Under the pieces are notes generated by a model that was given only the letters and a program-made list of their open reading frames with translations, was not told where the DNA came from and made no database searches. Source: an uncultured Alphaproteobacteria bacterium (GTDB taxonomy: Bacteria; Pseudomonadota; Alphaproteobacteria; Rhizobiales; Hyphomicrobiaceae). Taken from it: a stretch of 64,000 nt of DNA. Where the stretch lies: the NCBI GenBank assembly GCA_963724945.1, contig CAVRWL010000004.1:2093-66092 (forward strand), read 5' to 3'. How positions within the stretch are numbered: the first letter of the stretch is position 1; every line of letters starts with the position of its first letter. Shown here in pieces: positions 11,208 to 60,947 of the stretch. Made by a program: the position numbers and the translations under genes.

Positions 11208-11211
11208 GCGC

Positions 11212-26429: not shown

Positions 26430-26587
26430 GATGACAGTGCATAGCTGGAAGCCCGCGGCATAAAACAGTCATTTGTGCAATGCAGCATTGGCCGCCTCGA
26501 TTGCCGCATCGAGAGCGCCGATTTGATCCCGCGGGCGCAACTTGGGACAAGGCAGTTTGCCGCAGGCGAGGCCACCGAGGCATAGGA

Positions 26588-28691: not shown

Positions 28692-31599
28692 ATGACGCTG
28701 ATCAAGGAACAGGACTACGGCACCCCCGCCAAGCATCCGCACTGCGAACGCGACGGTGACGCTTGAGATCGACGGCCAGGCCGTGACGGTCCCTGAGGGC
28801 ACCTCGATCATGCGGGCGGCCGCCGATGCTCGGCATCAGGTGCCGAAGCTGTGTGCCAGCGACAACCTCGACCGCCTTCGGGTCGTGCCGGCTCTGCCTC
28901 GTCGAGATCGAGGGGCGCAAGGGCACGCCCGCCTCCTGCACCACGCCGGTGGCGCCGGGGATGCAAGGTTGCGACCCAGACCGACCGCCTTGCGCGCATC
29001 CGCAGGGGCGTGATGGAGCTTTACATCTCCGACCATCCGCTCGACTGCCTGACCTGCGCCGCCAACGGCGACTGCGAGCTGCAGGACATGGCGGGCGCAG
29101 TGGGCCTGCGCGACGTCCGCTACGGCTACGACGGCGACAACCATGTGTTCGCGCGCTCCAACGGCGAGACGAACCCGCTGTGGCAAGGCAAGGACAAGTC
29201 CAACCCCTACTTCCAGTTCGAGCCGTCGAAGTGCATCGTGTGCTCGCGCTGCGTGCGCGCGTGCGAGGAGGTGCAGGGCACCTTCGCGCTGACCATCGAC
29301 GGGCGCGGCTTCGCCTCGAACGTCGCTGCCAGCATGGACGAGGACTTCCTGCAATCGGAGTGCGTCTCCTGCGGCGCCTGCGTGCAGGCCTGCCCGACGG
29401 CGACGCTGATCGAGAAGTCCATCGTCGACCACGGCCAGCCCGAGCACTCCGTGGTGACGACGTGCGCCTACTGCGGCGTCGGCTGCTCGTTCAAGGCCGA
29501 GATGCAGGGCGACGAAGGTCGTGCGCATGGTGCCCTACAAGGACGGCGGGCGCCAACGAGGGCCACTCGTGCGTCAAGGGCCGCTTCGCGTTCGGCTACG
29601 CGACGCACAAGGACCGCGTGCTGGACCCGATGATCCGCGAGAAGATCACCGATCCCTGGCAGGTCGTGACCTGGGACGAGGCGATCAAGTTCGCCGCCGA
29701 CCGCTTCATGGCCATCCAGAAGAAGCACGGGCGCGGCTCGATCGGCGGCATCACGTCCTCGCGCACGACCAACGAGGAGGTCTACGTCGTGCAGCGCATG
29801 GTGCGCGCGGCCTTCGGCAACAACAACGTCGACACCTGCGCGCGCGTCTGCCACTCCCCGACCGGCTACGGCCTGAAGCGACGTTCGGCACCTCCGCCGG
29901 CACCCAGGACTTCCGCAGCGTCGACAAGTCCGACGTCATCCTGGTGATCGGCGCCAATCCGACCGACGCCCACCCCGTCTTCGCCTCGCGCATGAAGAGG
30001 CGCCTGCGTGAGGGCGCCAAGCTCATCGTCGTCGACCCGCGCCGCATCGACCTCGTGCAAGCACGCCCGCACGTCAAGGCCGACTATCATCTGCAGTTGC
30101 GGCCCTCGACCAACGTCGCGGTCCTCAACGCGCTGAGCCACGTCGTCGCCGCCGAGGGCCTCATCGATCGTTGCATTCGTCGCGGCGCGCTGCGAGAAGC
30201 ACGATTTCGAGCAGTGGGAGGCCTTCATCAAGGCCGGAGAGAACCGCCCGGAGGCGCTCGAGCCCATCACGGGCGTGCCGGCAGCCGAGATTCGGGCCGC
30301 CGCGCGCCTCTTCGCCACTGGCGGCAACGGCGCGATCTACTACGGCCTCGGCGTCACCGAGCACAGCCAGGGCTCGACCATGGTGATGGCGATGGCCAAC
30401 CTCGCCATGGCGACCGGCAACATCGGCCGCGAGGGCGTGGGCGTGAACCCGCTGCGTGGGCAGAACAACGTGCAGGGCTCCTGCGACATGGGCTCGTTCC
30501 CGCACGAGTTCCCGGGCTACCGCCACGTCTCGGGCGACGCGGTACGCGCAAGCTGTTCGAGAAGGTGTGGGGCAAGAAGCTCGATCCCGAGCCCGGGCTG
30601 CGCATCCCCAACATGTTCGACGCGGCCATCGAGCGGCTCGTTCAAAGGCCTCTTCGTGCAGGGCGAGGACATCGCCCAGTCCGACCCCAACACCCAGCAC
30701 GTGACGCACGCGCTCGACTCGCTGGAGCTCCTCGTCGTGCAGGACCTCTTCCTCAACGAGACGGCCGCCTTCGCGCACGTCTTCCTGCCGGGCACCTCGT
30801 TCCTGGAGAAGGACGGCACCTTCACCAACGCCGAGCGGCGCATCAACCGCGTGCGCCCGGTGATGAAGGAGCCGCAGCGGCAAGGCGGAGTGGGAGATCG
30901 TGTGCCGCATCGCTACGGTGATGGGCTATCCCATGAGCTATCCATCAGCGCCGGCGATCATGGACGAGATCGCCGCTACTGACGCCGACCTTCAAGGGCG
31001 TGAGCTTCGCCAAGCTCGACGAGCTCGGCAGCGTCCAGTGGCCGTGCAACGACGACGCGCCGATCGGCACGCCGGTCATGCACGTCGACGAGTTCACGCG
31101 CGGCAAGGGCCGTTTCAGTTGAGCCGACGTTCGTGCCGACGAACGAGCGCACCAACCGCAACTTCCCGCTCATCCTGACGACGGGCCGCATCCTCTCCCA
31201 GTACAACGTCGGCGCGCAGACGCGGCGCACCGAGAACGTCGTCTGGCACACGGAGGACATCCTCGAGATCCACCCCTCCGACGCAGAGGTTCGCGGCATC
31301 AAGGACGGCGCGCTTCGTCTCGCTCACGAGCCGCGTCGGCGGCACGACGATGCGCGTCCAGATCACCGACCGCATGCCGCCGGGCGTCGTCTACACGACG
31401 TTCCACTATCCCCGCCAGCGGCGCCAACGTGATCACGACGGAGAACTCCGACTGGGCGACCAACTGCCCCGAGTACAAGGTCACGGCCGTGCAGGTCATG
31501 CCGTCGAACCACCCCGCCGAATGGCAGACGGAGTGGGAGGAGCGTGACCGCGAGAACAAGCGCATCGCCGACAAGAAGACGCTGGTTGCGGCCGAGTGA
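28692..31599 (+). CDS. fdsA: Mo-bis-PGD formate dehydrogenase alpha subunit, broken by a dozen or more indels
   Basis: Fragments across frames: PKLCASD..GSCRLCLVEIEG, HPLDCLTC, CIVCSRCVRAC, CVSCGACVQACP, TCAYCGVGC, ARVCHSPT (Cys ligand), LTTGRILSQYNVG. Confidence 0.9.
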
Positions 31600-31658
31600 A
31601 CGAGCGCAGCCACTTTGCTTTGAGCGTTGTGTTGCTTTGAGCGTTGAGCGCCGCCATC

Positions 31659-32483
31659 ATGACCGCCATGGCAAAGAAGTCCGATCTCGTCGCGGCGCCC
31701 TCCGCGGCGCTGTGCTCGCAGCCGGTCGACGCCACGGCCTATGATGCGGGAGGAGAGGGCTCGCCGGTCACCTGGCAAATCCCCGACGAAGTCCCCGTTG
31801 CCATCCAGATCAACTCGGCGCCCTACACGGTGATGATGGCGACGCCGGCGAACCTCAACGAGTTCGGCGTCGGCTTCGCGCTCGCCGAAGGCATCGTGCC
31901 GAGGCGCTCCGATATCCGCGGCGTGCTCGCCATGCCTGTCGAGAGCGGCTTTGCCGTCGATATCGCCATCGATGAGGCGGCGCTCGAAGCAGCGCGTATG
32001 CCGCGCCGCTCCATCGAGGGCCGCTCGGGCTGCGGCCTGTGCGGCGTGGAGAACATCGCCGACGTCGTGCGCGTGACGGCGCCGGTTGAGCGCCAGGTCC
32101 GTCCCGACGCCGCCGCGATCCTGAAGGCCGCCACGGAGCTGCCGCAGCGCCAGCCGATGAACCGGCTCAATCACACCGTGCACGGCGCGGCGTGGGTCTC
32201 GCTTAAGGGCGAGGTTTTGATCGTGCGCGAGGACGTCGGCCGCCACAACGCGCTCGACAAGCTGATCGGCGCGCTTTTCGAGACGGGGACGGACCTCTCC
32301 TCCGGCTTCGTCCTGATGACGAGCCGCTGCTCTTTCGAGCTCGTGCAGAAGGCCGCCACCGTCGGCATCGGCGCGCTCGTAACCGTCTCGGCGCCGACCG
32401 CGCTCGCCCTCAAGATCGCCCGCAACGCCCACCTCTTTCTAGCCTCGCTCGGCGACCGTGGCGTCGTCGTCGTCAACACGTAA
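31659..32483 (+). CDS. fdhD: formate dehydrogenase sulfurtransferase FdhD/FdsC
   Basis: MMATPANL, SGCGLCG, REDVGRHNALDKLIG, TSRCSFELVQKA. Confidence 0.95.
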   Translation: MTAMAKKSDLVAAPSAALCSQPVDATAYDAGGEGSPVTWQIPDEVPVAIQINSAPYTVMMATPANLNEFGVGFALAEGIVPRRSDIRGVLAMPVESGFAVDIAIDEAALEAARMPRRSIEGRSGCGLCGVENIADVVRVTAPVERQVRPDAAAILKAATELPQRQPMNRLNHTVHGAAWVSLKGEVLIVREDVGRHNALDKLIGALFETGTDLSSGFVLMTSRCSFELVQKAATVGIGALVTVSAPTALALKIARNAHLFLASLGDRGVVVVNT

Positions 32484-33470: not shown

Positions 33471-36400
33471 TCACACGACCGCCGTCTTGTCGAGGTGCGC
33501 CACCATGAGCGGGTAGACGTCGCGGGCTGCATTCTTTCCGAAGATGCAGTCGATGTGGCCATACCCGGGGATTACCCGGCGCTCGTAGAGCTGGCGGCCG
33601 TTCGCTGCGGCGAGCCGCTCAAGCGTCCGCTCCGTGCTCGCGGGAAGGAAGCACGCGTTCTTGGCCCCGTGGATGAACAGGATCGGCAGCGCCAGGCGCC
33701 CGATATGGGGCAGGTAGACGTCGTTGCCGTTTCTGTCGAGCACGTGTCCTCTCCGCGTAAAGAGGGCGAGCTCTTTGAAGGCGTCGATGTTGGCCTCCCC
33801 GAACATCTCGGCAAGGCCCGAGGTGACGGTCGCCTCGTTGAGCTGCTCGAGCTGGTAGAGCCGCCCGTAGAGCGCGGTGATGCGGTTCGAGGTGGCGTCA
33901 CGCGTGCGTTCCGAGCGCGGCACCGCAACGATGAGCTGCAGCACCTTGTCGAGCGCGCGCTCGAGGAGCCCGTCGGAGGTGGTCGCGCGCGCGTCCACGA
34001 CGTCTATCCCCATCAGATCGAAGACATCCGGCGCGTGCAGGTACGCGAGCATCCGCTGCGGGAACAACGGCACGACGTAGTCGGTGGCGATTTGCGATAT
34101 GACGGCCGAGCGCACGCCTTCCAGGCCCGCCAACATCGCCATGGAGAAGGTGGTCGCGCCGAAGCAATGGGCGAGCATCTGCACCGTGGCAGAGCCGGTA
34201 ACGGCGCGCACCTTGGCGAGCGCGGCCGGATAGTCCTTGGTGGCGACGTCGTCGCCGGTCCACAGCTCGCGCGCGTAAGGCAGATCGACGCTGGCGCGGT
34301 AGTCGAGCAGCCAGCAGTCGTAGTCCGCCGCGACCAGGAACTCGATGAGGTTGGTCTCGATGGTATCGATCGCATAGATGAGGCTCGAGACGCCGAGCCC
34401 GTGCGAGAGCACGACGGGGCCCTTGCCGCCGCCGCGATAGCGCGTGAGCTTGAGGACCTTGCCGTCGCTCGTCTTGGCGAGATGAAACTCGGGCTCCGGC
34501 ACGCGCAGCGTCCGCTTCTTGCGCGGATTGACGGTATCGTAGCGGCCTGGGCGTGACAGCACGCCTCCGTAGGTGTCGAACAGCTCGCGGCTGAAGAAGC
34601 GTCCGAACTTGGCGACGGCCCGCAGACGATCGGCGGAATCCCGCCCGCCGAAGCCCTTAAGCGTCTGCATTTGCACGTAGAAATCAGATGGCGCGATCTC
34701 CAGCATGCCACGCGCGATATGCCCCGTCTGGGCCTTGGCGCCCATGCCGAGGTCGACATAAAGCCGCGTGGTGTCGCGCCAAAGGTCGAGATCGGCGTCC
34801 GAGCGCACGATCTTGTAGCCCTCGAAGTAGAACTCGCGGCCGTCACGCGCGCCGAAGGAGAAGCGGTAGTCGAAATGCTTGGTCTCCACCTCGTCCTCGT
34901 CCAACCGCAGCAGATTGAAGACGCCGTCAAAGATGTCCATGGGTTCCGGCGACAGCGAGGGACACTCGACGGAGCCGATGATGCGGCCGTTGTGGCTCTT
35001 CTCGTCGACGAAGCGGTCGACGTCGTCGATGATTACCGTGACGGTGAAGCTTAAGGGCGTTCCGGCGTCGCGCCCGCGCCGCGCCGCCGTCTCGTGCGGC
35101 AACGTCACGTCGGGGGAGACGTAGCCCGCCATGCGCTCGGTGAACTCGACGCCGGCGGGCGCGAGCTTCTCGCGTCCATCCGGGCCGGCGTAGAGTGCCG
35201 GTGCATCCGTCTTCGGCGCATCCGAGAAGGTCAGGCCGTAGTCGCGGGCGAGATGGATCATCGCGCGCTCGGCGAGCGCCGTTATCGTCAGCAAGGGATT
35301 GACGCCCAAGGGGCGCGGAATGACCGAGCCGTCGCACACGTAGAGCCCGGCGTGCACCGCGCCATCGGCTGCGTCGGGATGCGCGTCAAACACCTGGCAT
35401 TTGTGGTCCACGACGCCGCGCGTTCGATCCTGCCCCATCACGCAGCCTCCGAGCGGATGCACGGTGATGAGGCTGTTGCCGAGGATCGTATCGGTCAGCG
35501 GATTGCGCACGAAGGTGCCGCCGGTCGCTCTCGTCGCCCGCTTCAGGTTGCGCTCGGCGGCAGCGAAGATCGGCTGCTCGGCGACGCCCGGCCACGACAC
35601 CTCGAGGCCGCCCGTCGTCGAGCCCGATGCGGCCCCGGCCGTCGTCATGGCTCATGACGAGATACGTCTGCGTGCGGTGGATAGCGCCCTGATAGGGGCC
35701 GAACAGCAGGCTCTGGCGCTCGCGCGCCTGCTCCTCGAGCGCGTCGAGAAGGCCTTTGTCCATGTCCTCCCCGAAGCGCGCCGCGCCGGCGGCCATGAGT
35801 GCCGGCAGCACAGGCGCGAGGCCCGACGGGATCGATCCTTCCTCGATCACCATGCCGTCCTCGAGCCGCTCTGCGTCGCGCAGATCGATGAGGCCAGTGA
35901 TGCAGGGCCCGACGGGTCCCGTCTCGGCAGTGGGCGGCGCGCCGACGCCGATGCCGTTGACGGGCACGTCGTTGTTGTAGGCGAAGGCGAGCACGTCGCC
36001 GTTGCCGGTGAAGCGCTCGCCCAATTGATCGGAGACGGCGAGGCCCGCCGCGCGCGAGCGCAAGAGGATCTCGGTGGAACCGAGCGTGCCGGCGGCGAGC
36101 ACGACGATATCGGCGGTGATCGACTGGTCGGCGGCGGCGAACTTCTCGCGCTCGAGCCCCAAGGGCTCGAAATAGACGCGCCAGCGCCCGCGCTCGGGCA
36201 AGACGTGCGTGACGCGCAGCTCGGTGAAGATCTCGGCGCCGTGATTGTAGGCGTCCGCGATATAGGTCACCTGCACCGTGTTCTTCGCGCCGACATTGCA
36301 GCCCGCGCAGCAATCGCCGCACAGCGTGCATGCCGGCTGCTCGACGCCCGCGTAGTTGACCTGGCGCTCGAAGGTGACGTTGATCGGCGGGCGCACCACG

Positions 36401-36909
36401 TCGCGGCCGAGCAAGTTGCCGCTCACCTCCAGCGCCTTCAGCTTGGCGAGTGGCGGCGCGTCGGGATAGGGCGTGGGGCGCAGCACCTCTTGCGCGCGCG
36501 CAAAGCCCTCCTGGCGCGTCTCGTCGCCGGCGATCTCCTTGGGCCAGACGGGATCGTCCCAAACGCGCGGATCGGGGGGCAGCGAGACGTTGGCGTTGAT
36601 GAGCGAGCCGCCGCCCAGCCCGCAGCCGAGCAGCACGTGAATGTCGTTGCCGAGGCGGAGATCATAAAGCCCGAGCCGCGAGCCGGCGATGTGGGTGCCG
36701 TCCTTGGCGACCTGAAACTGCTCCTGCGCCTCGATCAAGCGGTCGGGAAAGTCGCCGATCGCAAACTCGCGGCCGCGCTCGAGCACGGCGACGCGCTTGC
36801 CGCAACGGGCGAGCCGCGAGGCGGCGACGCCGCCGCCGTAGCCCGAGCCGACCACGACGACATCGTAGCGCAGCTTCAGATCGGCGATGGACTTGGACAG
36901 CCGCCGCAT
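33471..36909 (-). CDS. cholesterol-oxidase-like GMC oxidoreductase fused to an alpha/beta hydrolase (~1145 aa; one extra base near 35612)
   Basis: VVVVGSGYGGGV FAD motif, GCGLGGGSLINANV, TVHPLGGC, GVNPLLTITALAER; C-terminal hydrolase with AHCFG and GYGHID. Confidence 0.88.
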
Positions 36910-36913
36910 CGCC

Positions 36914-38720
36914 TCAGTCTCCTCCTGCGCCCATCAAGTCGCGCCGCCAATGCCCGAACCACACGGGCTCTTTCTTGTCCGCGGCTGCAGCCTTGGGCGG
37001 CGCAATGACGGGACGCTCAGGCGCGTCCTCCCCCTTCATCTCCCAGCCGTAGTCGCGGGCGAGATGGATCATCGCGCGCTCGGCGAGCGCCGTGATGGTC
37101 AACAGCGGGTGGATGCCGAGCGGGCACGGGATGACGGCGCCATCGCAGACGTAGAGGCCGGCATGCACGGCGCCTGCGTCGCGATCCTCGCTCGTGTCGA
37201 ACACCTGCCCCTTGTGATTGACGACCCCCATCGTGCGGTCGGCGCCCATGGTGCACCCGCCGAGCGGGTGCACGGTCATGAGGTTGCCGCCGAAGATGCG
37301 CTCCGTCGCCGGATTGCGCATGTAGGTGCCGCCCGTCGCCGCCGCCGCGGCCATGAGCACGCTCTCGATGCGTTGGAACACACGCTGGCGCGGACCGTTG
37401 GACCATTCGATGGCTATGCGATCGTCTTGCAGCCGCATCAGGCCGTTGCCGGCATCGTGGCCGACCGCGAGGAACGTCTGCGTGTTGTGGACGGCGCCGT
37501 CGTAAGCGCCCTTGATCAGACTTTCGGTCGCGCGACCCAAAGCGTCGAGACCGTCGGAAAGCGATCGAGCCTCGCTCTCGCCGAACAGCGCGGCGCCAGG
37601 TGCCAAGAGCGCCGGCAGTAGCGGCGCGAAGGCGCTCGGCAACGCGCACTCGACGATCGCCAGGCCGTTCGCGCACATCGGGGTCGTCGCGCAGATCGAT
37701 GAGGCCGTTGACGGCCTGCCCCACCGGCGGCACGTGCACCTTCGCCGGGTAGCCGACGCCGACACCATTGACGGGGACGTCGTTGTTGTAGGCGAGCGCG
37801 ATTGCGTCGCCGTTGCTGGTGAAGCGGGCCCCGAGCCATTCCGAGAGCTTGAGGCCTTTCGCCTGCGAGCGCAGCAGGATCTCGGTGGAGCCGAGCGTGC
37901 CCGCCCCGAGCACGACGATGTCGGCTTTGATCTCGTCCCTGAAGGAGCGGTGCCGGCTACCATCGCCGCCGCGTATCCAGACGCGCCACGCGCCGTCCGC
38001 CTCCTTGGCAAGCGCGTAGACGCACGTCTCGGTGAAGATCTCCGCGCCGAAGCTCTCCGCGTCCGCGAGGTAGGTCGAGGCGACCGTGGTCTTGGCGCCG
38101 ACGTTGCAGCCGCCGCAGCAGTCCCCACACTGCGTGCAGCCCTCCTGGTAGACGCCGGCGGCGTTGGGAGCCGGACGCTTGGGCGACATGCAAAGGCACC
38201 GGCGAAACACTGCGCCCCAAGGCCGACGCGGCGAGGCGGAGCGCGCGCACTTTTTCAAACGAAGATGTGTCGGCGCACGGCTCAGGGCGCAGCATGTGGC
38301 GCGCGCGCACGAAGCCCTCGGCCAGCAGCCGGTCGCGGCGCACCTGCCGGCGGCCAGGCGCGATCATCGAACACGCGCGCATCGGGCGACAGGCAGACGT
38401 TGGCGTTGATGAGGGACGTGCCGCCGAGACCGCAGGCCATCATGACATTGACGTCTTCGCCGAGACGCACGTCGAACAACGCGGTGCGCTGAGCCCATGC
38501 GCACGTGCGCGCCGCTCACCTGCACCTCCTTCGCCGCGGCGGTCGCGCGATCGGGGAATTCGCCGGGGAGGAACTCGCGACCGCGCTCGAGCACGGCGAC
38601 GCGCTTGCCGCAACGGGCGAGCCGCGCGGCGGCGACCCCGCCGCCATAGCCCGAGCCGACCACGACGACGTCGTAATCCGCTTTGAGCTCGGAAGCTGGC
38701 TTCGATAGCCGCGCCTGCAT
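36914..38720 (-). CDS. second cholesterol-oxidase-like GMC oxidoreductase, multiple indels and a garbled stretch
   Basis: DVVVVGSGYGGGV, CGLGGTSLINANV, CTQCGDCCGGCNVGAK, TVHPLGGC, GIHPLLTITALAER recovered from several frames. Confidence 0.85.
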
Positions 38721-43011: not shown

Positions 43012-43086
43012 TGGCTGGGGCGGGAGGACTCGAACCTCCGAATGGCGGAATCAAAATCCGCTGCCTTACCACTTGGCTACGCCCCA
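43012..43086 (-). tRNA. tRNA-Gln (anticodon TTG)
   Basis: Reverse complement TGGGGCGTAGCCAAGTGGTAAGGCAGCGGATTTTGATTCCGCCATTCGGAGGTTCGAGTCCTCCCGCCCCAGCCA, 75-nt cloverleaf with CCA. Confidence 0.97.
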
Positions 43087-43271: not shown

Positions 43272-45044
43272 CTAGCGCGAAGGCTCGAGAACTTTCAGTG
43301 CCTCCGCCAGATCGCGTACCGGTCGCGTCTTGATCTCTTGCAGGTGGAATCGGTCTTCGATCATCTTGATGATTGACGTCGTGTCGAAGTCCTCGTGGGC
43401 CACGCCGGATTTCGCGAAGGCGCTAGAGACGAGCAGGGTCGGTATGCGGGTGCCGGGGCCCCACGCATCGGCAGCCGCCTTGTCGGAGCCATGCCGACCA
43501 TGTGGTGGAGGCGGCACGTGATCCCACGCGCCGCCGAACTCGTCGTACGTGACCACGATCAACGTGTCCTTGCCATCCGGCCCATTCACGATAGCCTTGA
43601 TCAGATCGACGAGATGGCTGCTGCCTTCCAACTCGCTGGTGTAGCCGGGATGCTCGTTCTCCTCGCCGACCGGCTTAATGAAGCTGACCGGCTTGAGCCT
43701 GCCCTCGTGCGCGGCCTTGATGAACTCCGCCTCGTCGAGCAAGTGGGCGGCGCGGGCCGCTGCGTGTGGCTGGGTATCGGCTGCGAAATTCGCGAAGTAG
43801 TTGAACGGCTGGTGGTGATACTGGAAATTCTTGTCCGGACAATGCGGGAAGCCCAGGCCCTGCAGCGGCACGAGCGGACTGTTGGCATCGGCGGGATCGG
43901 CATGAGTGGCTCTGGTGTCGGCATTCGGGTCGCTGCAGGCGGGGCCGCTACCGTTGGTCCAGCCGGGTGCACCGACAATGCCATTGGCATTCGACCAGCC
44001 GCCCGAATACCAGGCCCAGTCCACGTGCTCGGCCGTAAGCCGGTCACCGATCGTGGGGTTGGTGAGCAAAGGCAGGCGCTTTGCAGCGGCAGTGCCGGGC
44101 TGATACGGCCAAGAGATCGGCTGGATCGTGTTGACGGCGTAGTCGCCACACACGATGCCCTGCGGGGTCGCGGGCCGCCCCGCGGGCGGATTGCACGCAG
44201 CCGTCAGCGACCTTGGCTTCGCCGCAGCCCCCAGCGGGCTCGCGTAGAGTGGCGTGCTCATCGGCATGCCGTTGGCGTCGACGACTGAGTGAAGATCATT
44301 GGCGCCGCCATCGTTGGCCGCACCGGCGAATACCGGCGCAGCGCCTGCGATCAGCCATTGATGGTTGAGAAAGGATCCGCCGAAGGCTCCCTGAAAGAAG
44401 TGATCGGCTATCACGTAGTTAGGGGCACCATGGCTGTTGAGATACTTGTAGATCGGCAGATTCGTCGTGTCGTAGTAGCCCATCGAGAGGCCGGCCGCGT
44501 CGCTGCCAGTCACGTATCGGTTCTGCTTGCCCCCGTTGATCTGGTACTGCTCGATGTAATAGCGATGCACGAGGTCCCTCGTGCAGCCGCCAGGCAGACC
44601 CGTACCCTTCGCTTTTCCGTTGCCGGTGCGCTCACCCGGCGCAGGGCAGGTCGCGTCGCGCGAGGAGATGTAGGCGTCGATCTTGAAGGGCTTGTTGTCG
44701 AACGCACTCTCAAAGGGAGTTGCACCTGTGTTGTCCGTGCAGGTGGTCGCTAGCGGTGGCGCGGACGTGAGATTCACATCGTCCTGCAGCAGGCAGGTGT
44801 ACGGCGTGGTCCCGTCCTGGCGGACCTGTGGCGAATGCGCGGCGGCCGTCTCGGCATTGGCGAAGCCGTCGACCGGCTCCCCATCTACCTTGCCCCACAG
44901 GCCGAAGAGATTATCGAAGCTGTGGTTCTCCTGGTAGATGACGACGATGTGCTTGAAGTCGTCCAGACCAGCAGCATCGGCGAATGATGACGGCACCGCC
45001 GCACCGATGATCGCCGCAAGTGCGCACACGCCTTGAAACCGCAT
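43272..45044 (-). CDS. secreted acid phosphatase / phosphoesterase family (AcpA/PLC-like)
   Basis: Signal peptide; KHIVVIYQENHSFDNLFG, FGGSFLNH, NEHPG, TYDEFGGAWDHV. Confidence 0.9.
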   Translation of the reverse strand: MRFQGVCALAAIIGAAVPSSFADAAGLDDFKHIVVIYQENHSFDNLFGLWGKVDGEPVDGFANAETAAAHSPQVRQDGTTPYTCLLQDDVNLTSAPPLATTCTDNTGATPFESAFDNKPFKIDAYISSRDATCPAPGERTGNGKAKGTGLPGGCTRDLVHRYYIEQYQINGGKQNRYVTGSDAAGLSMGYYDTTNLPIYKYLNSHGAPNYVIADHFFQGAFGGSFLNHQWLIAGAAPVFAGAANDGGANDLHSVVDANGMPMSTPLYASPLGAAAKPRSLTAACNPPAGRPATPQGIVCGDYAVNTIQPISWPYQPGTAAAKRLPLLTNPTIGDRLTAEHVDWAWYSGGWSNANGIVGAPGWTNGSGPACSDPNADTRATHADPADANSPLVPLQGLGFPHCPDKNFQYHHQPFNYFANFAADTQPHAAARAAHLLDEAEFIKAAHEGRLKPVSFIKPVGEENEHPGYTSELEGSSHLVDLIKAIVNGPDGKDTLIVVTYDEFGGAWDHVPPPPHGRHGSDKAAADAWGPGTRIPTLLVSSAFAKSGVAHEDFDTTSIIKMIEDRFHLQEIKTRPVRDLAEALKVLEPSR

Positions 45045-45123
45045 TCGAGCCTCCACATGACAAGTGCGTGCACGATTTAACGGCGCTGTGCGACGCTCTT
45101 ACGTCGTAGGATGCTCGCAGCGG

Positions 45124-45141
45124 TTGTAATTCGACTGTCAT
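45124..45141 (+). promoter_or_regulatory. Pho-box-like direct repeat
   Basis: TTGTAAT-tcga-CTGTCAT, 11-bp periodicity, about 80 bp from the phosphatase start. Confidence 0.5.
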
Positions 45142-45173
45142 CAGTCATCGGCACGACTTGATCGTAGCCGCCA

Positions 45174-45199
45174 CGCTATATCCGATTGCATACAACGAT
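45174..45199 (+). promoter_or_regulatory. ModE/Mo-box-like operator
   Basis: CGCTATAT-N8-ATACAACG(AT), close to the CGnTATAT-N8-ATATAnCG(AT) consensus. Confidence 0.6.
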
Positions 45200-45369
45200 G
45201 TCGGAGTTGCGACAATCGACGCCGCCGGCGGCGCGCGGAAACGGCTGTTTTCACGCCGCAAATGGCGTCCGTTCCGGGCCGTGGCCGTCCCGGCATGAGG
45301 ATTGCTAGAGCTATTGCCAGGTGCTCTTGATCAGGCGAATGCCCAACACACAAATTCCGGAGAATTGCT

Positions 45370-45981
45370 ATGCCACGGCAGCTTCTCGACCTCGATCCAA
45401 ACAAGCTGGCCGCCGTCCTCTACCGGTCCGAGGACGACGTCGACGCCCTGCTCTATGAGTTCGCAAATGATCGCATGCGCGCCGGTGAGCGCGTCGGCGG
45501 CGTCGTGCAGCAGAACCTCAAGGATGCCGGCGGGCGGCGCGTCGGTATGCAACTCATCGACTTGATGACCAGCGGGGAGATCCCTATGGGGCAGTCGCTC
45601 GGCAGCGGCGCGAGCGGCTGCTCGCTCGACCCTGCGGGTCTCGCCGAGGCGTCGCTCGCCGTGACCCGCGCCATCGAGAGCGAGGTTGCGCTGATCGTCG
45701 TCAATAAGTTCTCCAAGCAGGAGGCGGCGGGCCAGGGACTGCGCAATGAGCTTGCGGATGCGGTCATTGCCGGACTGCCGGTGCTCACGGCGGTGCCCGA
45801 GACTTGCTTGCAAGCCTGGACGGACTTCACCGGCGATCGCGGCACGACGCTCTTCTGCGCGCGCCGCGTGATCGACGCATGGTGGCAAGAGGTGTCGACG
45901 CGTGAGGCTCTTATGCGCAATAGCCAGCCGCCGCGGGCCAAGCTGAATGCGGATCGCTTGGCTTCGACTTGGCGAGCATGA
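45370..45981 (+). CDS. DUF2478 family protein
   Basis: GGVVQ, QSLGSGASGCSLDP.GL, IVVNKFSKQEAAGQGLR, GLPVLTAV. Confidence 0.8.
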   Translation: MPRQLLDLDPNKLAAVLYRSEDDVDALLYEFANDRMRAGERVGGVVQQNLKDAGGRRVGMQLIDLMTSGEIPMGQSLGSGASGCSLDPAGLAEASLAVTRAIESEVALIVVNKFSKQEAAGQGLRNELADAVIAGLPVLTAVPETCLQAWTDFTGDRGTTLFCARRVIDAWWQEVSTREALMRNSQPPRAKLNADRLASTWRA

Positions 45982-46060
45982 CGTCCGACGACTTGATCAC
46001 GGTGGGCGCGCTGTCCCTTGCCTTGAGGCCTGGCGGCTCAAAGACCGCATGGAGGCGGCC

Positions 46061-46985
46061 TTGAACGACAATATTCCGAAATTGCTGGTCGGGCGGCGTC
46101 GCTTGCCGCTCGCTGTGATCCTCGGCACCAACGAGATCGCGTCGGCCGTCGCCGTGCATCTGCGCAAAGTCGGCTTCGGGGTCGTGCTGTCGCACGATCC
46201 GATGCCCCCGGTCATGCGTCGCGGCATGGCGTTCCATGACGCCCTGTTCGGCGAAGACTCCGATGATCGAGGGGGTTGCCGGATATGGTGTCGACCGCGC
46301 GTTCGACGTGATCGCCGTGATCAACGCTTCTGACCGGATGCGGGTCGCGATCACGCGGCTCGGTCTCTGCGACCTCCTGGCGATCCGCAGCATCACCGTG
46401 CTGGTCGATGCCCGCATGCGGAAGCACATGGTGACACCAGACCTCAGCCACCTCGCCGGCATCACCGTAGGGCTCGGGCCCGGATTCGAGGTCGGCGGCA
46501 ACTGCGATGTCGCGGTCGAGACGCGTCCGGCGCGCATCGGCCAGGTGGTGCAACAGGGTGCAACAGACGAGGCAGACGGCAAACCGCCTTCGCTCGGCGG
46601 CGCGGGCCGTGAGCGCTTCGTCTACGCGCGCAGCTCCGGGCTATGGCGCACGGCGTTCGACATCGGAGCCCAGGTCCGCGCCGGTGCAGCTCTAGGCTAC
46701 CTTGCGGATCGCGCTGTGATGGCCCCTATAAACGGAACACTGCGCGGCATCGTGCGTGACGCGACCACGGTGCCATCTGGCGTCAAGCTGCTCGAGGTCG
46801 ACCCGCGCGGGCAAGCCTGCTGGATCGGCATCGACGAGCGCGGACGCCGGATTGCGCTTGCGGCGATGCGAGCAATTGCGGTGCAGGCAAACCGTTATGA
46901 GGGCCGCGAGGACTTGAAGCAATTGCACTGGAATAGCGCACACCTGAAGGAAAAGGTGGCACGCGTTGGCCGCGACCGGCTGTAG
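46061..46985 (+). CDS. YqeB-like molybdenum hydroxylase accessory protein (one extra base near 46256)
   Basis: VILGTNEIASAVAVHL, RRGMAFHDA, LVDARMRK, VGLGPGFEVG.NCDVAVET, GRERFVYA, GTLRGIVRD, KLLEVDPR; TTG start with GGAGG. Confidence 0.75.
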
Positions 46986-47271
46986 CAGCCTCGGCTTACG
47001 CGGATTTGTCGCATTGAGCCAGATGTGCTAGGCACTGCGGCGACCAGCGTTTCGCACTCCACCATACGGCGATAAACGAGCCCCCGGGTGTCCAGAAGCC
47101 GGGACTCGCAATTTTACGCGTATCGCATTATCTCCGATCAAACCCACTATGGTTGGAGCCTGCCGCGGGGGACTCGACGGTCCCCATCACGGGCGCTCCC
47201 AGCTTGGGCTCGGACCGCGGTCCCAGTGCCCAATGTGCTCTCTGCTTATCGACCTCGAAAGGAGGCCCCTT

Positions 47272-47517
47272 CTGATAGTTCTCGTTCGCGAAAACAACGT
47301 CGACCAAGCCCTCAGGGTCCTGAAGAAGAAGCTCCAGCGCGAAGGCGTTTTCCGAGAGATGAAGCGCCGGCGGTCCTATGAAAAGCCGTCCGAGAAAAGA
47401 GCCCGAGAGAAGGGTGAGGCCGTGCGTAGGGCAAGAAAGGCTGCGCGCAAGCTAGCCCAACGCGAAGGCTTGCTCCCAAAGCCGGCTGCCAAACGGCCTG
47501 TATTCGGCCGCCGGTAG
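47272..47517 (+). CDS. rpsU: 30S ribosomal protein S21, apparent CTG start
   Basis: [29 protein letters not shown]...YEKPSEKR; GGAGG 6 nt before CTG. Confidence 0.92.
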
Positions 47518-56069: not shown

Positions 56070-57914
56070 CTATGTCGGTGCGCGGGCGGCGCTCGCCGGC
56101 GCGCTGCGCCAGCGCACGATGAAGTCGGCAGGGATGGCGATCGACCAGCGCACACCCTCCTGGGGAAACTCATATGCGACGGTCGCGTTGAGGGCCTGCG
56201 CGGCGACCCGCTCGATGACGATATGGCCGAAGCCCTTGACCGCCGGCGGCGCCACGGCGGGGCCGGCCCGCTCCCGCCAATTGAGGCTCAAGCGCGGCTT
56301 GCCATCGCCGTTGGATGCAACCGACCACATCACGCGCACCCGCCCTTCGCTCGTGGACAATGCGCCGTACTTCGCCGCGTTGGTGGCGAGCTCGTGCAGC
56401 GCCAGTCCGAGGTTCTGCGCCGCGGTCGCGTTGACGAAGACGCTCGGCCCCTCGCATTCGAGCGCTTCGGATTCGCTGCCGATGAAGGGTTGCAGCACCG
56501 CGCGGATGAGCTCTTCGAGGGAGGCGCCCGCCCAATCCTCCGCGACAAGCAGGTCATGGGAGGCCGAAAGGCCCTGCAGGCGCTGGATCAGCTCCGATTG
56601 CAGCACGGCGACGTCGCTGCTCGCGCGCGCGGTCTGGCGCACCATCGCCATGATGACGGCGAGCAGGTTCTTGGTGCGGTGCGATAACTCGCGCATGACG
56701 ACGCGCAGGTGCTTGTCGACCCGCGTTCGCTCGGAAATGTCGCGCAGCACGGCAGAGAAGCCGATGATGCGTCCATCGGGACGGCGCATCGGCGCCGCAT
56801 TGATCGCGACATCGATCAACGTTCCGTCCTTGCGCCGCCGCACCGCGTCGCGCAGCACGTGCTCGCCGTGGCGCAAGTGCTGATACTTCTCCTCGAATTC
56901 CTGGCCGGCGCCCTCCGTGAACAGGATCCGCTCCGACGTGCCGATGATCTCATCGGCCGTGTACCCGAACATCTGCTCCGCACCGGGATTCCACGACAGC
57001 ACCGTGCCGTCCTCCGCGAGGGAGATGATGGCGTCGGGCGACATTCCGACGATCGTCGCCAGCTGGGCGTTGCGCTCGGCCTCCTCAAGATGCTCGGTGA
57101 TGTCCGTGTTGGTCCCGAACCAGCGCACGACCTTGCCGCTCTCGTCGCGGATCGGCATGGCTCTCGACAGAAACCAGCGATAGGTGCCGTCGCGTCCGCG
57201 CAGCGGGAAGGTGTCCTCCCACACCTCGCCCGTCTTAAAGTGACGGGAAATCTTCTCGACGACGCGATTGACGTGATCGGGATGATGCACCTTTTGCCAG
57301 CCCCATCCCTTCATCTCCTCGAGGCTCGTGCCCGTGTAGTCGAACCAGCGCTTGTTGTACCAGAAGATGGATCCCGTCTCGTCGGCCATCCAGGCGAACT
57401 GCGCGATGTTGTCGGCGAGCGTGCGAAAGCGCGACTCGCTTTCCCGTTGCGCGCGCGCAGCGTACACCCACGGCGTCGTCTCCACGACGATGGCGAGCAC
57501 GCCCGCGGGCGCGCCCGTCTCGTCGCGCACCGGGCTGTAGTCGAGGTTCATCCATGCATCCTCGGGCGCGCCACGGCGATTGAGGAGGAAGTGCTTGTCC
57601 TTGAACGACAGCATCTCTCCGGCAAGCCCGACTTGCATCACCTGTCGGTTGAAGTCAGCAACCTCGGGCCATCCCTGCAGAACCGGCGAGCCGAGGATCT
57701 GCGGATGGCGGCTTCCGGCAAAGCCCGCATAGGCATCGTTGTAGATCATGATGCCGTCCTTCCCCCACAGCAGCACCATCGGCAGGGGCGAAGCCGTGAC
57801 GATGTCGACGGCAGTCCGCAAGCTCTGCGGCCAAGTCTCGATCGCGCCGAGACTGGTCGCCGACCAATCGAACGCTTGGATGTGCGATTTCATTTCGCTG
57901 GCAGGGGGTGACAT
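56070..57914 (-). CDS. cytoplasmic multi-PAS HWE histidine kinase
   Basis: FDWSATSLG PAS-like N-terminus, PAC motifs, RELSHRTKN, HELATNAAKYG, WRE. Confidence 0.93.
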   Translation of the reverse strand: MSPPASEMKSHIQAFDWSATSLGAIETWPQSLRTAVDIVTASPLPMVLLWGKDGIMIYNDAYAGFAGSRHPQILGSPVLQGWPEVADFNRQVMQVGLAGEMLSFKDKHFLLNRRGAPEDAWMNLDYSPVRDETGAPAGVLAIVVETTPWVYAARAQRESESRFRTLADNIAQFAWMADETGSIFWYNKRWFDYTGTSLEEMKGWGWQKVHHPDHVNRVVEKISRHFKTGEVWEDTFPLRGRDGTYRWFLSRAMPIRDESGKVVRWFGTNTDITEHLEEAERNAQLATIVGMSPDAIISLAEDGTVLSWNPGAEQMFGYTADEIIGTSERILFTEGAGQEFEEKYQHLRHGEHVLRDAVRRRKDGTLIDVAINAAPMRRPDGRIIGFSAVLRDISERTRVDKHLRVVMRELSHRTKNLLAVIMAMVRQTARASSDVAVLQSELIQRLQGLSASHDLLVAEDWAGASLEELIRAVLQPFIGSESEALECEGPSVFVNATAAQNLGLALHELATNAAKYGALSTSEGRVRVMWSVASNGDGKPRLSLNWRERAGPAVAPPAVKGFGHIVIERVAAQALNATVAYEFPQEGVRWSIAIPADFIVRWRSAPASAARAPT

Positions 57915-58028
57915 GGCCGGCTCGGAAGCGCTTTGCGACAGTCTACGTGAGGAGCACGTGGCACGGTATGTCATTTGACATATCTGCGTTATGAGGTCAT
58001 TGCGGACGCCCGGCGCGCTCGACGCACT

Positions 58029-58054
58029 GGAACCGAACCGCGCGCGCCGGAGTT
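58029..58054 (+). promoter_or_regulatory. EcfG promoter of the DUF1328 gene
   Basis: GGAAC-N17-AGTT. Confidence 0.65.
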
Positions 58055-58097
58055 GGGGAAGACGAGCGAATGCCAATCCCCTCAGCGCGAGGCAGCC

Positions 58098-58274
58098 ATG
58101 GGCAACCTTCTCTCCTGGGCCGTCGTCTTTCTCATCATCGCTCTCATCGCCGCCTTCCTGGGCTTCGGCGGCGTCGCCGGCGTGGCGACCAATGGGGCGC
58201 GAATGCTGTTCTGGGTCGCCATCATCCTCGTGGTTCTCTCTTTCATCGGCGGCATGTTGCGACGTGGCTCTTGA
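58098..58274 (+). CDS. DUF1328 small membrane protein
   Basis: [22 protein letters not shown]. Confidence 0.9.
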
Positions 58275-58392
58275 AGGCGCGGCCGAAGGCATCGAGGAAG
58301 CTTAGCCTCCGCAGCAAGGCCGAAAAAACGACGTATTTTCCATGAGATAGGCGGGAACCAGCTGTCGGGGGGTGGCAAATCTCTGCTATGGT

Positions 58393-58418
58393 GGAACTTT
58401 CCCCGTTGCCCATGCGTT
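58393..58418 (+). promoter_or_regulatory. EcfG promoter of phyR
   Basis: GGAAC-N17-CGTT. Confidence 0.85.
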
Positions 58419-58456
58419 AGCGCGCATCGCGGCCCACCGTGAGAGAAGGGGAGACC

Positions 58457-59272
58457 ATGTCGATCTCAGAGGTTATCGCACCGCAGCTGCCGTACTTAAG
58501 GCGGTTCGCGCGCGTGTTGTCGGGCAGCCAGGCAAGCGGCGACGCCTACGTCGTCGCGATGCTCGAAGCGCTCGCGGCCGAGCCCGACCTATTTCCCACC
58601 GATCTCAATCCGCGGGTCGCAACATATCAGACCTTTCTCAAGGTCTGGAACACGGTGCGCCTCAACCAGAAGGCCGCCGAGACCGCGGTCTCCGAGCGGC
58701 TCGCGGCGGCCGACCGCAAGCTCGAAGCCATAACGCCGAGAGCGCGCCAAGCGTTTCTGCTGATTGCGGTCGAGGAGTTCACGACCGAGGAAGCCGAACA
58801 GACTCTCGAGACCGACGAGATGGGCATCAAATCGCTCGTCGACCAGGCTGCTTCGGAGATCGCCGAGCAAGTGGCGACGAACGTTCTCATCATCGAGGAC
58901 GAGCCGATGATCGCCATCGACCTTGCCGATCTCGTCACCGGCCTCGGCCATGACGTCTGCGAGACGGCACGCACCCACAAGGAAGCCGTGGCGGCCTTCG
59001 GCCGGCACAAGCCGGGCTTGGTTCTCGCCGACATCCAACTTGCCGACGGCAGCTCCGGCTTGGATGCGGTCAATGAGATTCTGGGATCGTTCGATGTGCC
59101 GGTGATCTTCATCACGGCTTATCCCGAGCGGCTGTTGACCGGCAGCCGTCCGGAGCCGACGTTCCTTGTCAACAAGCCGTTCCGGACAGAGACCGTGCAG
59201 GCCGTCATCAGCCAGGCGCTGTTTTTCGACTACAGAGCGCGCCGCCCGAATGCCCGGGTCGCCTCGGCCTGA
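58457..59272 (+). CDS. phyR: anti-anti-sigma response regulator PhyR
   Basis: Sigma-like N-terminus LPYLRRFAR.LSGSQASGDAYV; receiver IIEDE, ADIQLADG, FITAYPERLLTG. Confidence 0.96.
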   Translation: MSISEVIAPQLPYLRRFARVLSGSQASGDAYVVAMLEALAAEPDLFPTDLNPRVATYQTFLKVWNTVRLNQKAAETAVSERLAAADRKLEAITPRARQAFLLIAVEEFTTEEAEQTLETDEMGIKSLVDQAASEIAEQVATNVLIIEDEPMIAIDLADLVTGLGHDVCETARTHKEAVAAFGRHKPGLVLADIQLADGSSGLDAVNEILGSFDVPVIFITAYPERLLTGSRPEPTFLVNKPFRTETVQAVISQALFFDYRARRPNARVASA

Positions 59273-59340
59273 AGTCGCACGCAGATTGTCAGGAGGAGCC
59301 GACGCGGGTGCGGAGCGAGGCGCGCTGCTGCACGTCCTTC

Positions 59341-59871
59341 TCACCTGTGTCGTCCCCGGCAAGCACCCTCCGCCGGATCGCGCGACATCAACTGGGCGAG
59401 CTTCGTGCGCGCGCGATTGACACGGCTCTTGACCGTGCCGACCGCGCAGCCGCAGATGCCGGCTGCGTCCTCGTAGGAGAACCCTTCCGCCCCGACGAGG
59501 ATCAACGCCTCGCGCTGGTCGGCCGGCAACTTGGCTAGCGCATTGTTGAGGTCGATGAGGTCGAGATGGCCATGCTGCTCGGGGGCGACCGCCTGGCGCG
59601 CGGCAAACTGGCCGTCGGCGTCGGGAACCTCGCGCTTCGTCTTGCGCAGCTCTGAGAAGTAGGCGTTGCGCAGGATCGTGAACAGCCACGCCTTGAGGTT
59701 GGTGCCCTGCTGGAAGGATTCCAGGTGATTCCAGGCCTTCACGAGGGCCTCCTGGACGAGATCGTCGGCGCGATCGCGGTTGCCGCACAGCGAGATGGCG
59801 AACGCCCGCATGTTCGGGATCGCCGCCACCAGATCGTCTCGGAGCGAGGTATCCTGCGCCCGCACGGTCAC
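59341..59871 (-). CDS. ecfG: general stress ECF sigma factor EcfG
   Basis: IPNMRAFAISLCG.RDRADDLVQE, AWLFTILRN, GTVKSRVNRAR; overlaps the nepR stop. Confidence 0.93.
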   Translation of the reverse strand: MTVRAQDTSLRDDLVAAIPNMRAFAISLCGNRDRADDLVQEALVKAWNHLESFQQGTNLKAWLFTILRNAYFSELRKTKREVPDADGQFAARQAVAPEQHGHLDLIDLNNALAKLPADQREALILVGAEGFSYEDAAGICGCAVGTVKSRVNRARTKLAQLMSRDPAEGACRGRHR

Positions 59872-60185
59872 TGACCACCCTCCTCGGGCTCGTCAGCCTT
59901 CTGCGGGCGGGGCTCGTTGCGTTCGAGCTCCTTGATGAGCTGCGTGATCGCGTCGGGAACAGGCGCGTTGAGAAGCTCGCTGTAGGCGGCCTTCAATTGC
60001 TTGCCGAGGATGCCGGGAAGCACATCCTGGTTGCGTGCGCGTGTGCGTCCTAGCCGCTTACCTCGTCCATCGCTCTGGGGTGCCTTGCTTGAGGAGGGGT
60101 CTTTCAAATCCGGCGCCGCGTGCTGCGCTTGCAAGCTCTCATCGCATGACTTGCCGCCAAGCGCCTTCTTCTCCTCGGACATCAA
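59868..60185 (-). CDS. nepR: anti-sigma factor NepR
   Basis: Core LGKQLKAAYSELLNAPVPDAITQLIKEL; directly upstream of ecfG. Confidence 0.88.
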   Translation of the reverse strand: MMSEEKKALGGKSCDESLQAQHAAPDLKDPSSSKAPQSDGRGKRLGRTRARNQDVLPGILGKQLKAAYSELLNAPVPDAITQLIKELERNEPRPQKADEPEEGGQ

Positions 60186-60330
60186 TCAGACCCTCCCCCG
60201 TCCCGCCGCGACGTCGTGCACGCGAGGCTCCTTATTCTGCAGAGCGCACGCCATCTCATTTCTCCGGGGGCTCCCTCGCCGGAGCAAGATCGTCCGGCTG
60301 CACCTTAACATCGGACCTATAGGCTTCAGC

Positions 60331-60355
60331 AACGGCCGGCCGCGGGAAAGGTTCC
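60331..60355 (-). promoter_or_regulatory. EcfG promoter of nepR-ecfG
   Basis: Minus strand GGAAC-N16-CGTT. Confidence 0.85.
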
Positions 60356-60512
60356 CTTAGGGGAATAGATTTTTTGCTCGGCCGCTCCATCTGATGGTGC
60401 TGCAGCGCAAAAAGAAGCCCGCGACCCAAGGGCGAGCCCGGGTCGCGGGCTGGAAACGTGCCGGCTGGAGGCGAGGGAGGTGCCGGCTCGCCCGACTTGC
60501 GTGGTCAGGGCC

Positions 60513-60710
60513 TCACCAGCGGCGCATGGCCTCGTCGACCTGCTTCTTAACTGCGTCCTTGGCGATGCCGTAGTGCTCTTGGATCTTGCCCTCGAGCTGC
60601 TCACGGTTGCCGGCGATCTGGTTGAGCTCGTCGTCCGTGAGCTTGCCCCACTGCTCCTTAACCTTTCCTCTGAACTGCTTCCAGTTGCCACTCACGCGAT
60701 CCCAATTCAT
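60513..60710 (-). CDS. CsbD family stress protein
   Basis: MNWDRVSGNWKQFRGKVKEQWGKLTDDEL. Confidence 0.95.
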   Translation of the reverse strand: MNWDRVSGNWKQFRGKVKEQWGKLTDDELNQIAGNREQLEGKIQEHYGIAKDAVKKQVDEAMRRW

Positions 60711-60749
60711 CGTTCTTCTCCTTGAGTTGCGTTGTGCAATCGGCGTGAA

Positions 60750-60774
60750 AACGAGTGCCTCCGGGATTAGTTCC
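60750..60774 (-). promoter_or_regulatory. EcfG promoter of csbD
   Basis: Minus strand GGAAC-N16-CGTT. Confidence 0.85.
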
Positions 60775-60834
60775 GGCGGCGGTTGCAGCTTCCTGCCGAT
60801 GATTCACGAGGGCATTAACGTGCACGGCGAAATG

Positions 60835-60859
60835 GGAACTTCTTTTACGGAGCTGCGTT
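60835..60859 (+). promoter_or_regulatory. EcfG promoter of the membrane HWE kinase
   Basis: GGAAC-N16-CGTT. Confidence 0.8.
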
Positions 60860-60947
60860 TAGGCTAACCCGTTCGGGATAGCTCTCGCGCGGCGACGGGC
60901 GCTGCTCGCTGCCTCCGGGGAGGCTTAACCGAGAAGATCATCTTGCG

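Follow-up and report, generated by a model that had tools for sequence, protein, structure and literature searches.

A DUF2478 and YqeB-like gene pair of an uncultured alphaproteobacterium behind a predicted sigma-54 promoter with abutting NifA-type and ModE-type sites

We analysed a 64-kb stretch of DNA (hereafter the window; positions 2,093 to 66,092 of contig CAVRWL010000004.1, GenBank assembly GCA_963724945.1) from an uncultured Alphaproteobacteria bacterium of the Hyphomicrobiaceae, and in particular a DUF2478 gene, the YqeB-like gene that follows it and the region upstream of both. With moderate confidence, we propose that the two genes form an operon under activation by NifA and sigma-54, with ModE-molybdate as a modulator, probably a repressor, and that its products handle molybdenum (Mo) or the Mo cofactor. 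The proposal starts from motifs, their conservation, gene families and gene neighbourhoods, all observed in the window and in related loci. The features concerned, in window coordinates, are the following.

45174-45197, no strand: ModE-type dyad (Mo-box-like), CGCTATAT-N8-ATACAACG, in full CGCTATATCCGATTGCATACAACG
45199-45214, no strand: predicted NifA-type upstream activator site, TGTCGGAGTTGCGACA, a perfect TGT-N10-ACA
45291-45306, plus strand: predicted sigma-54 -24/-12 promoter, CGGCATG-AGGA-TTGCT, with GG at 45292-93 and GC at 45304-05
45370-45981, plus strand: DUF2478 gene, 203 amino acids; GGAG ribosome-binding site at 45359-62, 7 nt before the ATG
45968-46030, minus strand: 3'-end relic of mop (molbindin, TOBE), from its minus-strand translation compared with the Mop C-terminus
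46049-46985, plus strand: YqeB-like or 'xanthine dehydrogenase accessory factor'-like gene, frameshifted in the window at 46254/46255

Predicted control region of the gene pair

For comparison, 80 loci encoding DUF2478 relatives were sampled from Bradyrhizobium, Rhodopseudomonas, Hyphomicrobium, Afipia, Tardiphaga and several metagenome-assembled genomes, and six further loci were sampled from YqeB-like homologues, giving 86 related loci in all. An earlier note on this DNA had described a ModE-like dyad ahead of DUF2478. This dyad is real, the end of the box being located 172 nt 5' of the ATG at 45370 (the half ending in GAT, as drawn in that note, reaches 45199). The box, CGCTATATCCGATTGCATACAACG, is the single match in the 64 kb even with three mismatches allowed, for 0.05 expected. 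The consensus for E. coli ModE, quoted in PMC545781 as atCGnTATATA-N6-TATATAnCGat, specifies 20 positions, and the box agrees with 15 of them. The earlier note had also suggested to look for such boxes upstream of DUF2478 and YqeB orthologues, and a box is found at the equivalent position in 20 related loci. Indeed, a relaxed pattern, CGNTATNT-N8-ATANANCG with at most one mismatch, gives 24 matches in 959 kb of related loci, and 21 of these occupy the equivalent position, ahead of either DUF2478 or modA-DUF2478.

The box of most relatives is CGyTATGT-N8-ATACAnCG, so that it contains TGT-N10-ACA, whereas the copy in the window has TAT where the relatives have TGT and is closer to the ModE consensus than theirs. 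The outer positions, CGyTA...nCG, are conserved across genera. Furthermore, in other alphaproteobacteria canonical palindromic boxes without TGT (GCTATAT-N8-ATATAGC) stand at the same place before YqeB-like genes in the loci L081, L084, L086 and L087, with a sigma-54 promoter 3' of them, and another locus, L085, displays CGCTATAT-N8-ATATGTCG followed by TGTCGG-N5-CGACA before its YqeB-like gene, and has a further, canonical box 23 nt ahead of a modA-like gene. Two boxes of the canonical ModE type, CGTTATATTCCTATGTATATCACG and CGTTATGGCCATGGACATATAGCG, were also seen in L003 (8190-12609), about 40 bp before two NAD-type aldehyde dehydrogenase genes, one of which is the first gene of an operon that also contains DUF779 and a second DUF2478 paralogue; the boxes may serve the Mo-dependent repression of Mo-independent isoenzymes. 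Given the TAT core, the conserved outer positions, the TGT-free canonical boxes, the L003 boxes and the match to the consensus, the box is best read as a putative ModE-type operator, predicted from its motif, which abuts the NifA-type site and in relatives overlaps it.

The NifA-type site begins 1 bp past the box and is the only exact TGTCGG-N5-CGACA in the window; the pattern of this activator site alone is not above chance, 1.98 matches being expected in the window with one mismatch allowed. Its centre is found 86 bp from the GG of the -24 element, within the range of about 80-150 bp for NifA upstream activator sites, and almost all related loci keep the site, some 85-110 bp ahead of their -24/-12 element. 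The homologous site of B. japonicum modABC has been predicted as a NifA site (PMC4999443 supplement). The -24/-12 element itself is the only GGCAYG-N4-TTGCW in the window, for 0.17 expected. It reads cGGCAtG-AGGA-TTGCT, agrees with 10 of 12 positions of the sigma-54 consensus TGGCACG-N4-TTGCW, taken from PMC4999443, and leaves 63 nt (45307-45369) between its end and the ATG; transcription would start near 45317. Among the related loci such an element occurs at most 160 nt upstream of the DUF2478 start in 53 of 81, for 0.023 expected per site.

When the 21 upstream regions with the box at the equivalent position are aligned, conservation is confined to three elements, namely the box, the TGTCGG-N5-CGAC site and the -24/-12 element, and the spacers between them vary freely. 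The order and spacing of the motifs are consistent with an activator-dependent sigma-54 promoter, and neither a sigma-70-like promoter nor an intrinsic terminator was found in 44900-47300. No Moco (Mo cofactor) riboswitch or other leader RNA was detected either, since Rfam at gathering threshold returned two tRNAs only for the whole window, and a permissive Rfam scan of 45000-46100 gave only a chance snoRNA match. Mo regulation of the pair, as the earlier note had it, is in keeping with the conserved ModE-type dyad, but the arrangement is not that of a classical operator over a sigma-70 promoter. Given the predicted sigma-54 promoter and the abutting NifA-type site, the unit would therefore belong to the nitrogen-fixation regulon as much as to the Mo regulon.

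A further sigma-54 element was observed in the Bradyrhizobium modABC-DUF2478 operons, where TCGGCAYGGAGATTGCTC, near position 5942, is well conserved and precedes the start of DUF2478 by a fixed 59 nt, a place that coincides with the 3' end of modC or falls within it (L009, L021, L024-L026, L029, L030, L033, L039 and others). Because the element is conserved at this fixed distance, it suggests that DUF2478 has its own internal promoter in these operons.

The same upstream sequences could also be interpreted as a tandem pair of NifA sites of which the box is the upstream member, and the operon would then be controlled purely by NifA and sigma-54 and be blind to Mo. Indeed, 19 of the 20 related loci with a box have TGT-N10-ACA inside it, the box and the downstream site are spaced by exactly 20 bp wherever the latter fits the consensus too, the Bradyrhizobium sequence at the box position is TGTCGGCTTGCCGACG, and for B. 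japonicum modABC Tsoy et al. predicted a pair of upstream NifA sites with this same 20-bp spacing (PMC4999443 supplement). However, the box of the window, with TAT and not TGT, has no core NifA triplet and fits the ModE consensus better than the relatives do, and the outer CGyTA...nCG positions are conserved across genera though a NifA site does not need them. Moreover, TGT-free TATAT-type boxes occupy the same place before YqeB-like genes, one box stands directly before a modA-like gene, and ModE genes adjoin box-bearing loci only: genes of TIGR00637, whether or not they include a Mop domain, lie at most 6 kb away in 5 of 21 box loci (L007, L018-L020 and L080) and in none of the 60 loci without a box. 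We regard a Mo-blind NifA pair as unlikely, while it is the alternative that we take most seriously, and retain the ModE-type reading of the box.

Gene context in related loci

The gene context was established by clustering of neighbouring open reading frames (ORFs) and by family scans. In relatives, modD (TIGR01334, 270 bits) is divergent and upstream, and in the footprinted related loci the control elements separate modD from DUF2478 or from modABC-DUF2478. Most Bradyrhizobium loci display a divergent modD followed by modA, modB, modC and DUF2478, and adjoin fixABCX and ahpCD. In Rhodopseudomonas the divergent modD is followed by the box, the activator site and the promoter, then by DUF2478 and by either an ArsC-like 'nitrogenase-associated protein' gene (TIGR01616) or a YqeB-like gene. 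Moreover, a small Mop/TOBE gene is convergent just after DUF2478 in many relatives.

The pairing is seen from the side of the YqeB-like gene as well. In three of the six sampled YqeB-like loci (Azospirillum, and L086 and L087 from two other lineages) it is directly followed by DUF2478: the order in Azospirillum is mop-modA-modB-YqeB-like-DUF2478-modE, the pair of L086 is found with mop and modD, and that of L087 with draTG, nifH and nifA. The YqeB-like gene of the remaining three is paired with an ArsC-like gene. The pair is thus recurrent, and in relatives it stands among modD, modABC, modE and mop, which bears out the earlier suggestion of a testable Mo lead for DUF2478.

Two further observations concern DUF2478. 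In Hyphomicrobium and related metagenome-assembled genomes (L054, L043, L049, L051 and L057), an LRV-FeS protein gene and an Fe-S assembly operon of the sufBCDS type come after it, a context which represents another link of DUF2478 to metal-cluster biogenesis. Besides, a candidate fusion of TOBE with DUF2478 (P0093) comes from a 1.3-kb contig and is a possible gene-calling artefact; it was not used as evidence.

In the window itself, tblastn found no modA, modB, modC, modD or modE, and the statement of the earlier note that no modABC genes adjoin the pair, nor any selD or Mo-hydroxylase genes, is confirmed. The sole remnant is the mop relic of about 20 codons between DUF2478 and the YqeB-like gene, whose translation, ending in LKARDSAPTVIKSSDVMLAK before a stop codon, aligns with the Mop C-terminus LKVGDSVSAVIKSSDVMIGK and its stop. 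This indicates that mop was deleted in the lineage of the window. The pair had been called stand-alone in the earlier note; this is true of the window, but because a mop relic is retained (and modD lies upstream in relatives) the state derives from a mod/mop cluster.

The DUF2478 and YqeB-like proteins

The identity given to the first gene by the earlier note is secure, as the DUF2478 ORF matches PF10649 over the full model (E = 4e-54; 183 bits for a cutoff of 22.3; model positions 1-159 of 159). The nearest Protein Data Bank (PDB) folds to its AlphaFold model, which has a pLDDT (predicted local distance difference test score) of 86, are those of THEP1/NTPCR, 2i3b and 1ye8 (Foldseek E = 7e-6, template-modelling score ~0.55), and the profile matches to THEP1/NTPCR (Pfam NTPase_1) are weak. 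No Walker A motif (GxxxxGK[ST]) was found in DUF2478, the beta1-loop-alpha1 segment being LYRSEDDVD with no G-K-S/T, and no Walker B motif (hhhhDE), VNKFSKQE standing at that position. The same non-canonical motifs occupy the P-loop and Walker B positions in all 28 aligned DUF2478 members and in a paralogous clade. Because YRxEDDVD and NKFSKQE replace Walker A and Walker B, nucleoside triphosphate hydrolysis is unlikely and the protein is probably not an NTPase. Three conserved cysteines are features of its clade, C84 without exception and C146 and C163 with few exceptions. DUF2478 is widespread, with more than 250 clusters in public data, no functional study and no close solved structure, and a literature search for it gave a single incidental mention.

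A YqeB-like gene does come next, as the earlier note had it, since TIGR03309 is matched, but the gene is split in this assembly by a frameshift which the note overlooked. The two ORF pieces, 45947-46333 and 46236-46985, cover TIGR03309 positions 2-49 and 52-253 respectively, and the frameshift corresponds to one extra A at 46254/46255 (window 46250-46259 is GGCGAAGACT). Intact YqeB-like orthologues of 290 amino acids align continuously over it. Furthermore, near-identical sequence is present in two public soil-metagenome runs, X1 and X2: the X2 contig, otherwise free of mismatches, omits one letter at 46254, and across the frameshift point the X1 contig reads TGTTCGGCG immediately followed by AGACT. 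The version with a single A gives one ORF at 46049-46985, of 311 amino acids, matching TIGR03309 positions 2-253 of 256. As the contigs of both runs are without the extra A, the YqeB-like gene is probably intact and the extra A an assembly error.

Other genes of the window are split too: FdsA is distributed over at least three ORFs in different frames (28797-31432) and a glucose-methanol-choline (GMC) oxidoreductase is also broken (35386-38254). Together with the extra A, these suggest frameshift errors of an error-prone assembly rather than pseudogenes.

These observations bear on whether the control region and operon are the decaying remnant of a nif/mod cluster, no longer regulated or needed. 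Such decay would agree with the absence of modD, with a mop cut to a 20-codon relic, with the lack of nif and mod genes in the window, with the frameshift in the assembly and with DUF2478 substitutions at conserved positions. Against it, all three motif cores are intact despite a protein divergence of ~30-40% from the nearest relatives and rearranged flanks, the DUF2478 ORF is full-length, the frameshift is absent from the contigs of the two public runs, and the split FdsA and GMC oxidoreductase point to assembly errors. We consider a remnant improbable.

The YqeB-like model (pLDDT 81) shows a Rossmann-like N-domain and a barrel-hybrid C-domain. The clade is widespread, with more than 1500 clusters in public data, and its homologues are often named 'xanthine dehydrogenase accessory factor', with no functional study of the clade and no close solved structure. 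The earlier note had connected the gene to the maturation of selenium-dependent Mo hydroxylases, and TIGR03309 (YqeB) is indeed the best NCBIfam model. However, its score of 155 bits for the read-supported product, and of 148-152 bits for intact orthologues, is below the 220-bit cutoff, and Pfam XdhC_CoxI and XdhC_C match neither window piece nor the intact orthologue. Moreover, selD, yqeC and Mo-hydroxylase genes were not found in the window, nor next to the gene in those related loci that were examined, where the neighbours are mod, nif and fix genes; the nearest Mo-hydroxylase is ~5 kb away, in L085 only, and neither in the window nor in the 86 related loci is the pair accompanied by selD or by genes of selenium-dependent hydroxylases. 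Owing to the sub-cutoff score and to the lack of these genes alongside, the selenium link is unsupported, and maturation of selenium-dependent enzymes by the pair is very improbable.

Proposed regulation and role

According to the favoured model, a NifA-type enhancer-binding activator at 45199-45214 would drive sigma-54 RNA polymerase at 45291-45306 under nitrogen-fixing conditions, and one transcript would span DUF2478 and the YqeB-like gene. Molybdate-loaded ModE at 45174-45197, 1 bp from the activator site, would most likely hinder binding of the activator. Hence the operon would be on when nitrogen fixation is active and Mo is scarce, as are modABC, modD, mop and R. capsulatus morAB, and DUF2478 and the YqeB-like protein together would bind and pass on molybdate, or an Mo or Mo-cofactor intermediate. 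From motifs, context and fold we infer which proteins occupy the sites, in which direction Mo acts and what the products do biochemically. Viewed as a whole, the earlier interpretation of a Mo-regulated cofactor-trafficking or maturation pair is partly supported.

Several points weigh against this model. The window contains no modE, nifA, rpoN or nif genes in its 64 kb, and the box of most relatives, with TGT-N10-ACA 20 bp from the second site, leaves room for the tandem NifA pair discussed above. As for the proteins, the DUF2478 of the window departs from several highly conserved positions (e.g. K85S, R48Q), a sequence search of solved structures with DUF2478 and the YqeB-like protein gave nothing meaningful, and the PDB fold matches of the latter by Foldseek are weak, including the XdhC-like 2we7. 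The proposed role in Mo or Mo-cofactor trafficking is drawn from gene context and fold. Finally, the classical position of a ModE repressor overlaps the transcription start. Since the box is found near -120, off this position, the sign of Mo control is uncertain.

The opposite sign was therefore considered, in which ModE at the box would act positively by aiding the activator, so that available Mo would induce the operon and its products would serve cofactor maturation rather than scavenging. ModE is an activator at some promoters, for example that of E. coli moaABCDE. Furthermore, the box is upstream of the activator site and clear of the core promoter, and YqeB- and XdhC-type proteins are annotated as cofactor-maturation factors. 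However, the conserved neighbours modABC, modD and mop are Mo-starvation genes, and Mo represses R. capsulatus morAB, the sole studied precedent that combines NifA with a Mo-box. Positive control by ModE is in our opinion rather unlikely, and repression remains the favoured sign.

The DUF2478/YqeB-like pair is often accompanied by Mop, ModD and the ArsC-like 'nitrogenase-associated protein'. As a more speculative extension of the model, which we put forward tentatively and with less confidence than the model itself, the two proteins might constitute an unrecognised Mo-trafficking module of diazotrophic Alphaproteobacteria. This module would be induced only when nitrogenase synthesis and scarce Mo coincide, and would channel Mo from ModABC to the synthesis of the iron-molybdenum cofactor (FeMo-cofactor) and/or molybdopterin, with ModE acting as an anti-activator at a sigma-54 enhancer site instead of blocking the promoter. 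To our knowledge, channelling of Mo towards cofactor synthesis has so far been assigned only to NifQ- and NifO-type proteins.

Other features of the window

The immediate neighbours of the pair in the window are unrelated to molybdenum. The other Mo genes pointed out by the earlier note, MoaE and a formate dehydrogenase operon fdsGBA-fdhD behind a LysR gene, are present farther away.

43272-45045, minus strand: acid phosphatase/phosphoesterase gene (PF04185, TIGR03397-like), upstream and divergent
47149-47517: rpsU, downstream of the YqeB-like gene
Beyond rpsU: two DUF1488 genes, an LpxD-like gene and a DEAD-box helicase gene
10764-11222, minus strand: MoaE
25437-26429: LysR gene of the NAD-type formate dehydrogenase operon
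26435-27100 and 27025-28458: FdsG and FdsB of the same operon
28797-31432 and 31641-32483: FdsA pieces and FdhD of the same operon

A tRNA gene at 43015-43086 (minus strand) lies just past the acid phosphatase gene, which occupies the place of modD, and may mark a rearrangement boundary. A general stress response locus was also noticed at 56070-63038, with PhyR (58421-59272), an EcfG-type extracytoplasmic function (ECF) sigma factor (59341-59892) and two HWE histidine kinases with PAS or Cache domains.

Comparison with known systems

The nearest regulatory precedent is R. capsulatus morAB, which is activated by NifA and repressed by the ModE-like MopA/MopB (PMC6925177). The morAB promoter (NifA/RpoN, Mo-box) resembles the present one in combining sigma-54 nitrogen-fixation activation with a ModE-type site ahead of Mo accessory genes of unproven function. 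In contrast, morAB encodes ModAB-like transporter parts whereas the genes here are DUF2478 and a YqeB-like gene, and the box here abuts the activator site at about -120 and not the core promoter.

Similar control has been described in Bradyrhizobium. NifA and RpoN sites are predicted upstream of modABC, which is placed in the predicted NifA regulon (PMC4999443), and in rpoN mutants of Bradyrhizobium modABC and modD are down-regulated, with an RpoN site CGGCACGCCGATTGC reported at modA in Bradyrhizobium DOA9 (PMC13207237). This site is the same element as the one found in the related loci of this analysis. The Bradyrhizobium modABC promoter is homologous to the present one, with tandem sites 20 bp apart, CGGCACG-N4-TTGCT about 90 bp downstream and DUF2478 following modC. 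Unlike Bradyrhizobium, the window is devoid of modABC and modD, and its upstream site has TATAT/ATACA half-sites with CG flanks and not TGTCGG/CGACG. The E. coli ModE operators share the dyad geometry and the association with Mo genes, but they overlap sigma-70 promoters. Because the control logic has these precedents, the regulatory part is not new in kind: it joins known regulons, the NifA sites of Bradyrhizobium had already been predicted, and what is unusual is a ModE-type site beside the enhancer site. Such a ModE-type site abutting an enhancer site would be a useful case of the integration of metal and nitrogen signals at a sigma-54 promoter.

As for the products, THEP1/NTPCR (2i3b, 1ye8) is the closest fold to DUF2478, which differs from it by the lack of Walker A and B and by the clade cysteines C84, C146 and C163. 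With YqeB (TIGR03309) and XdhC-type factors, the YqeB-like protein shares a full-length model alignment, the database names and a weak 2we7 match, but it differs from them by its sub-cutoff score, by the lack of Pfam XdhC and by its neighbours, which are mod, nif, DUF2478 and the ArsC-like nitrogenase-associated gene. The routing of Mo in diazotrophs, between uptake, storage, FeMo-cofactor and molybdopterin, is poorly understood, and DUF2478 and YqeB-like genes are reasonable candidates for missing steps. The gene pair is uncharacterised, and the fact that it is regularly found among mod, mop, modE and nif genes gives a useful functional lead.

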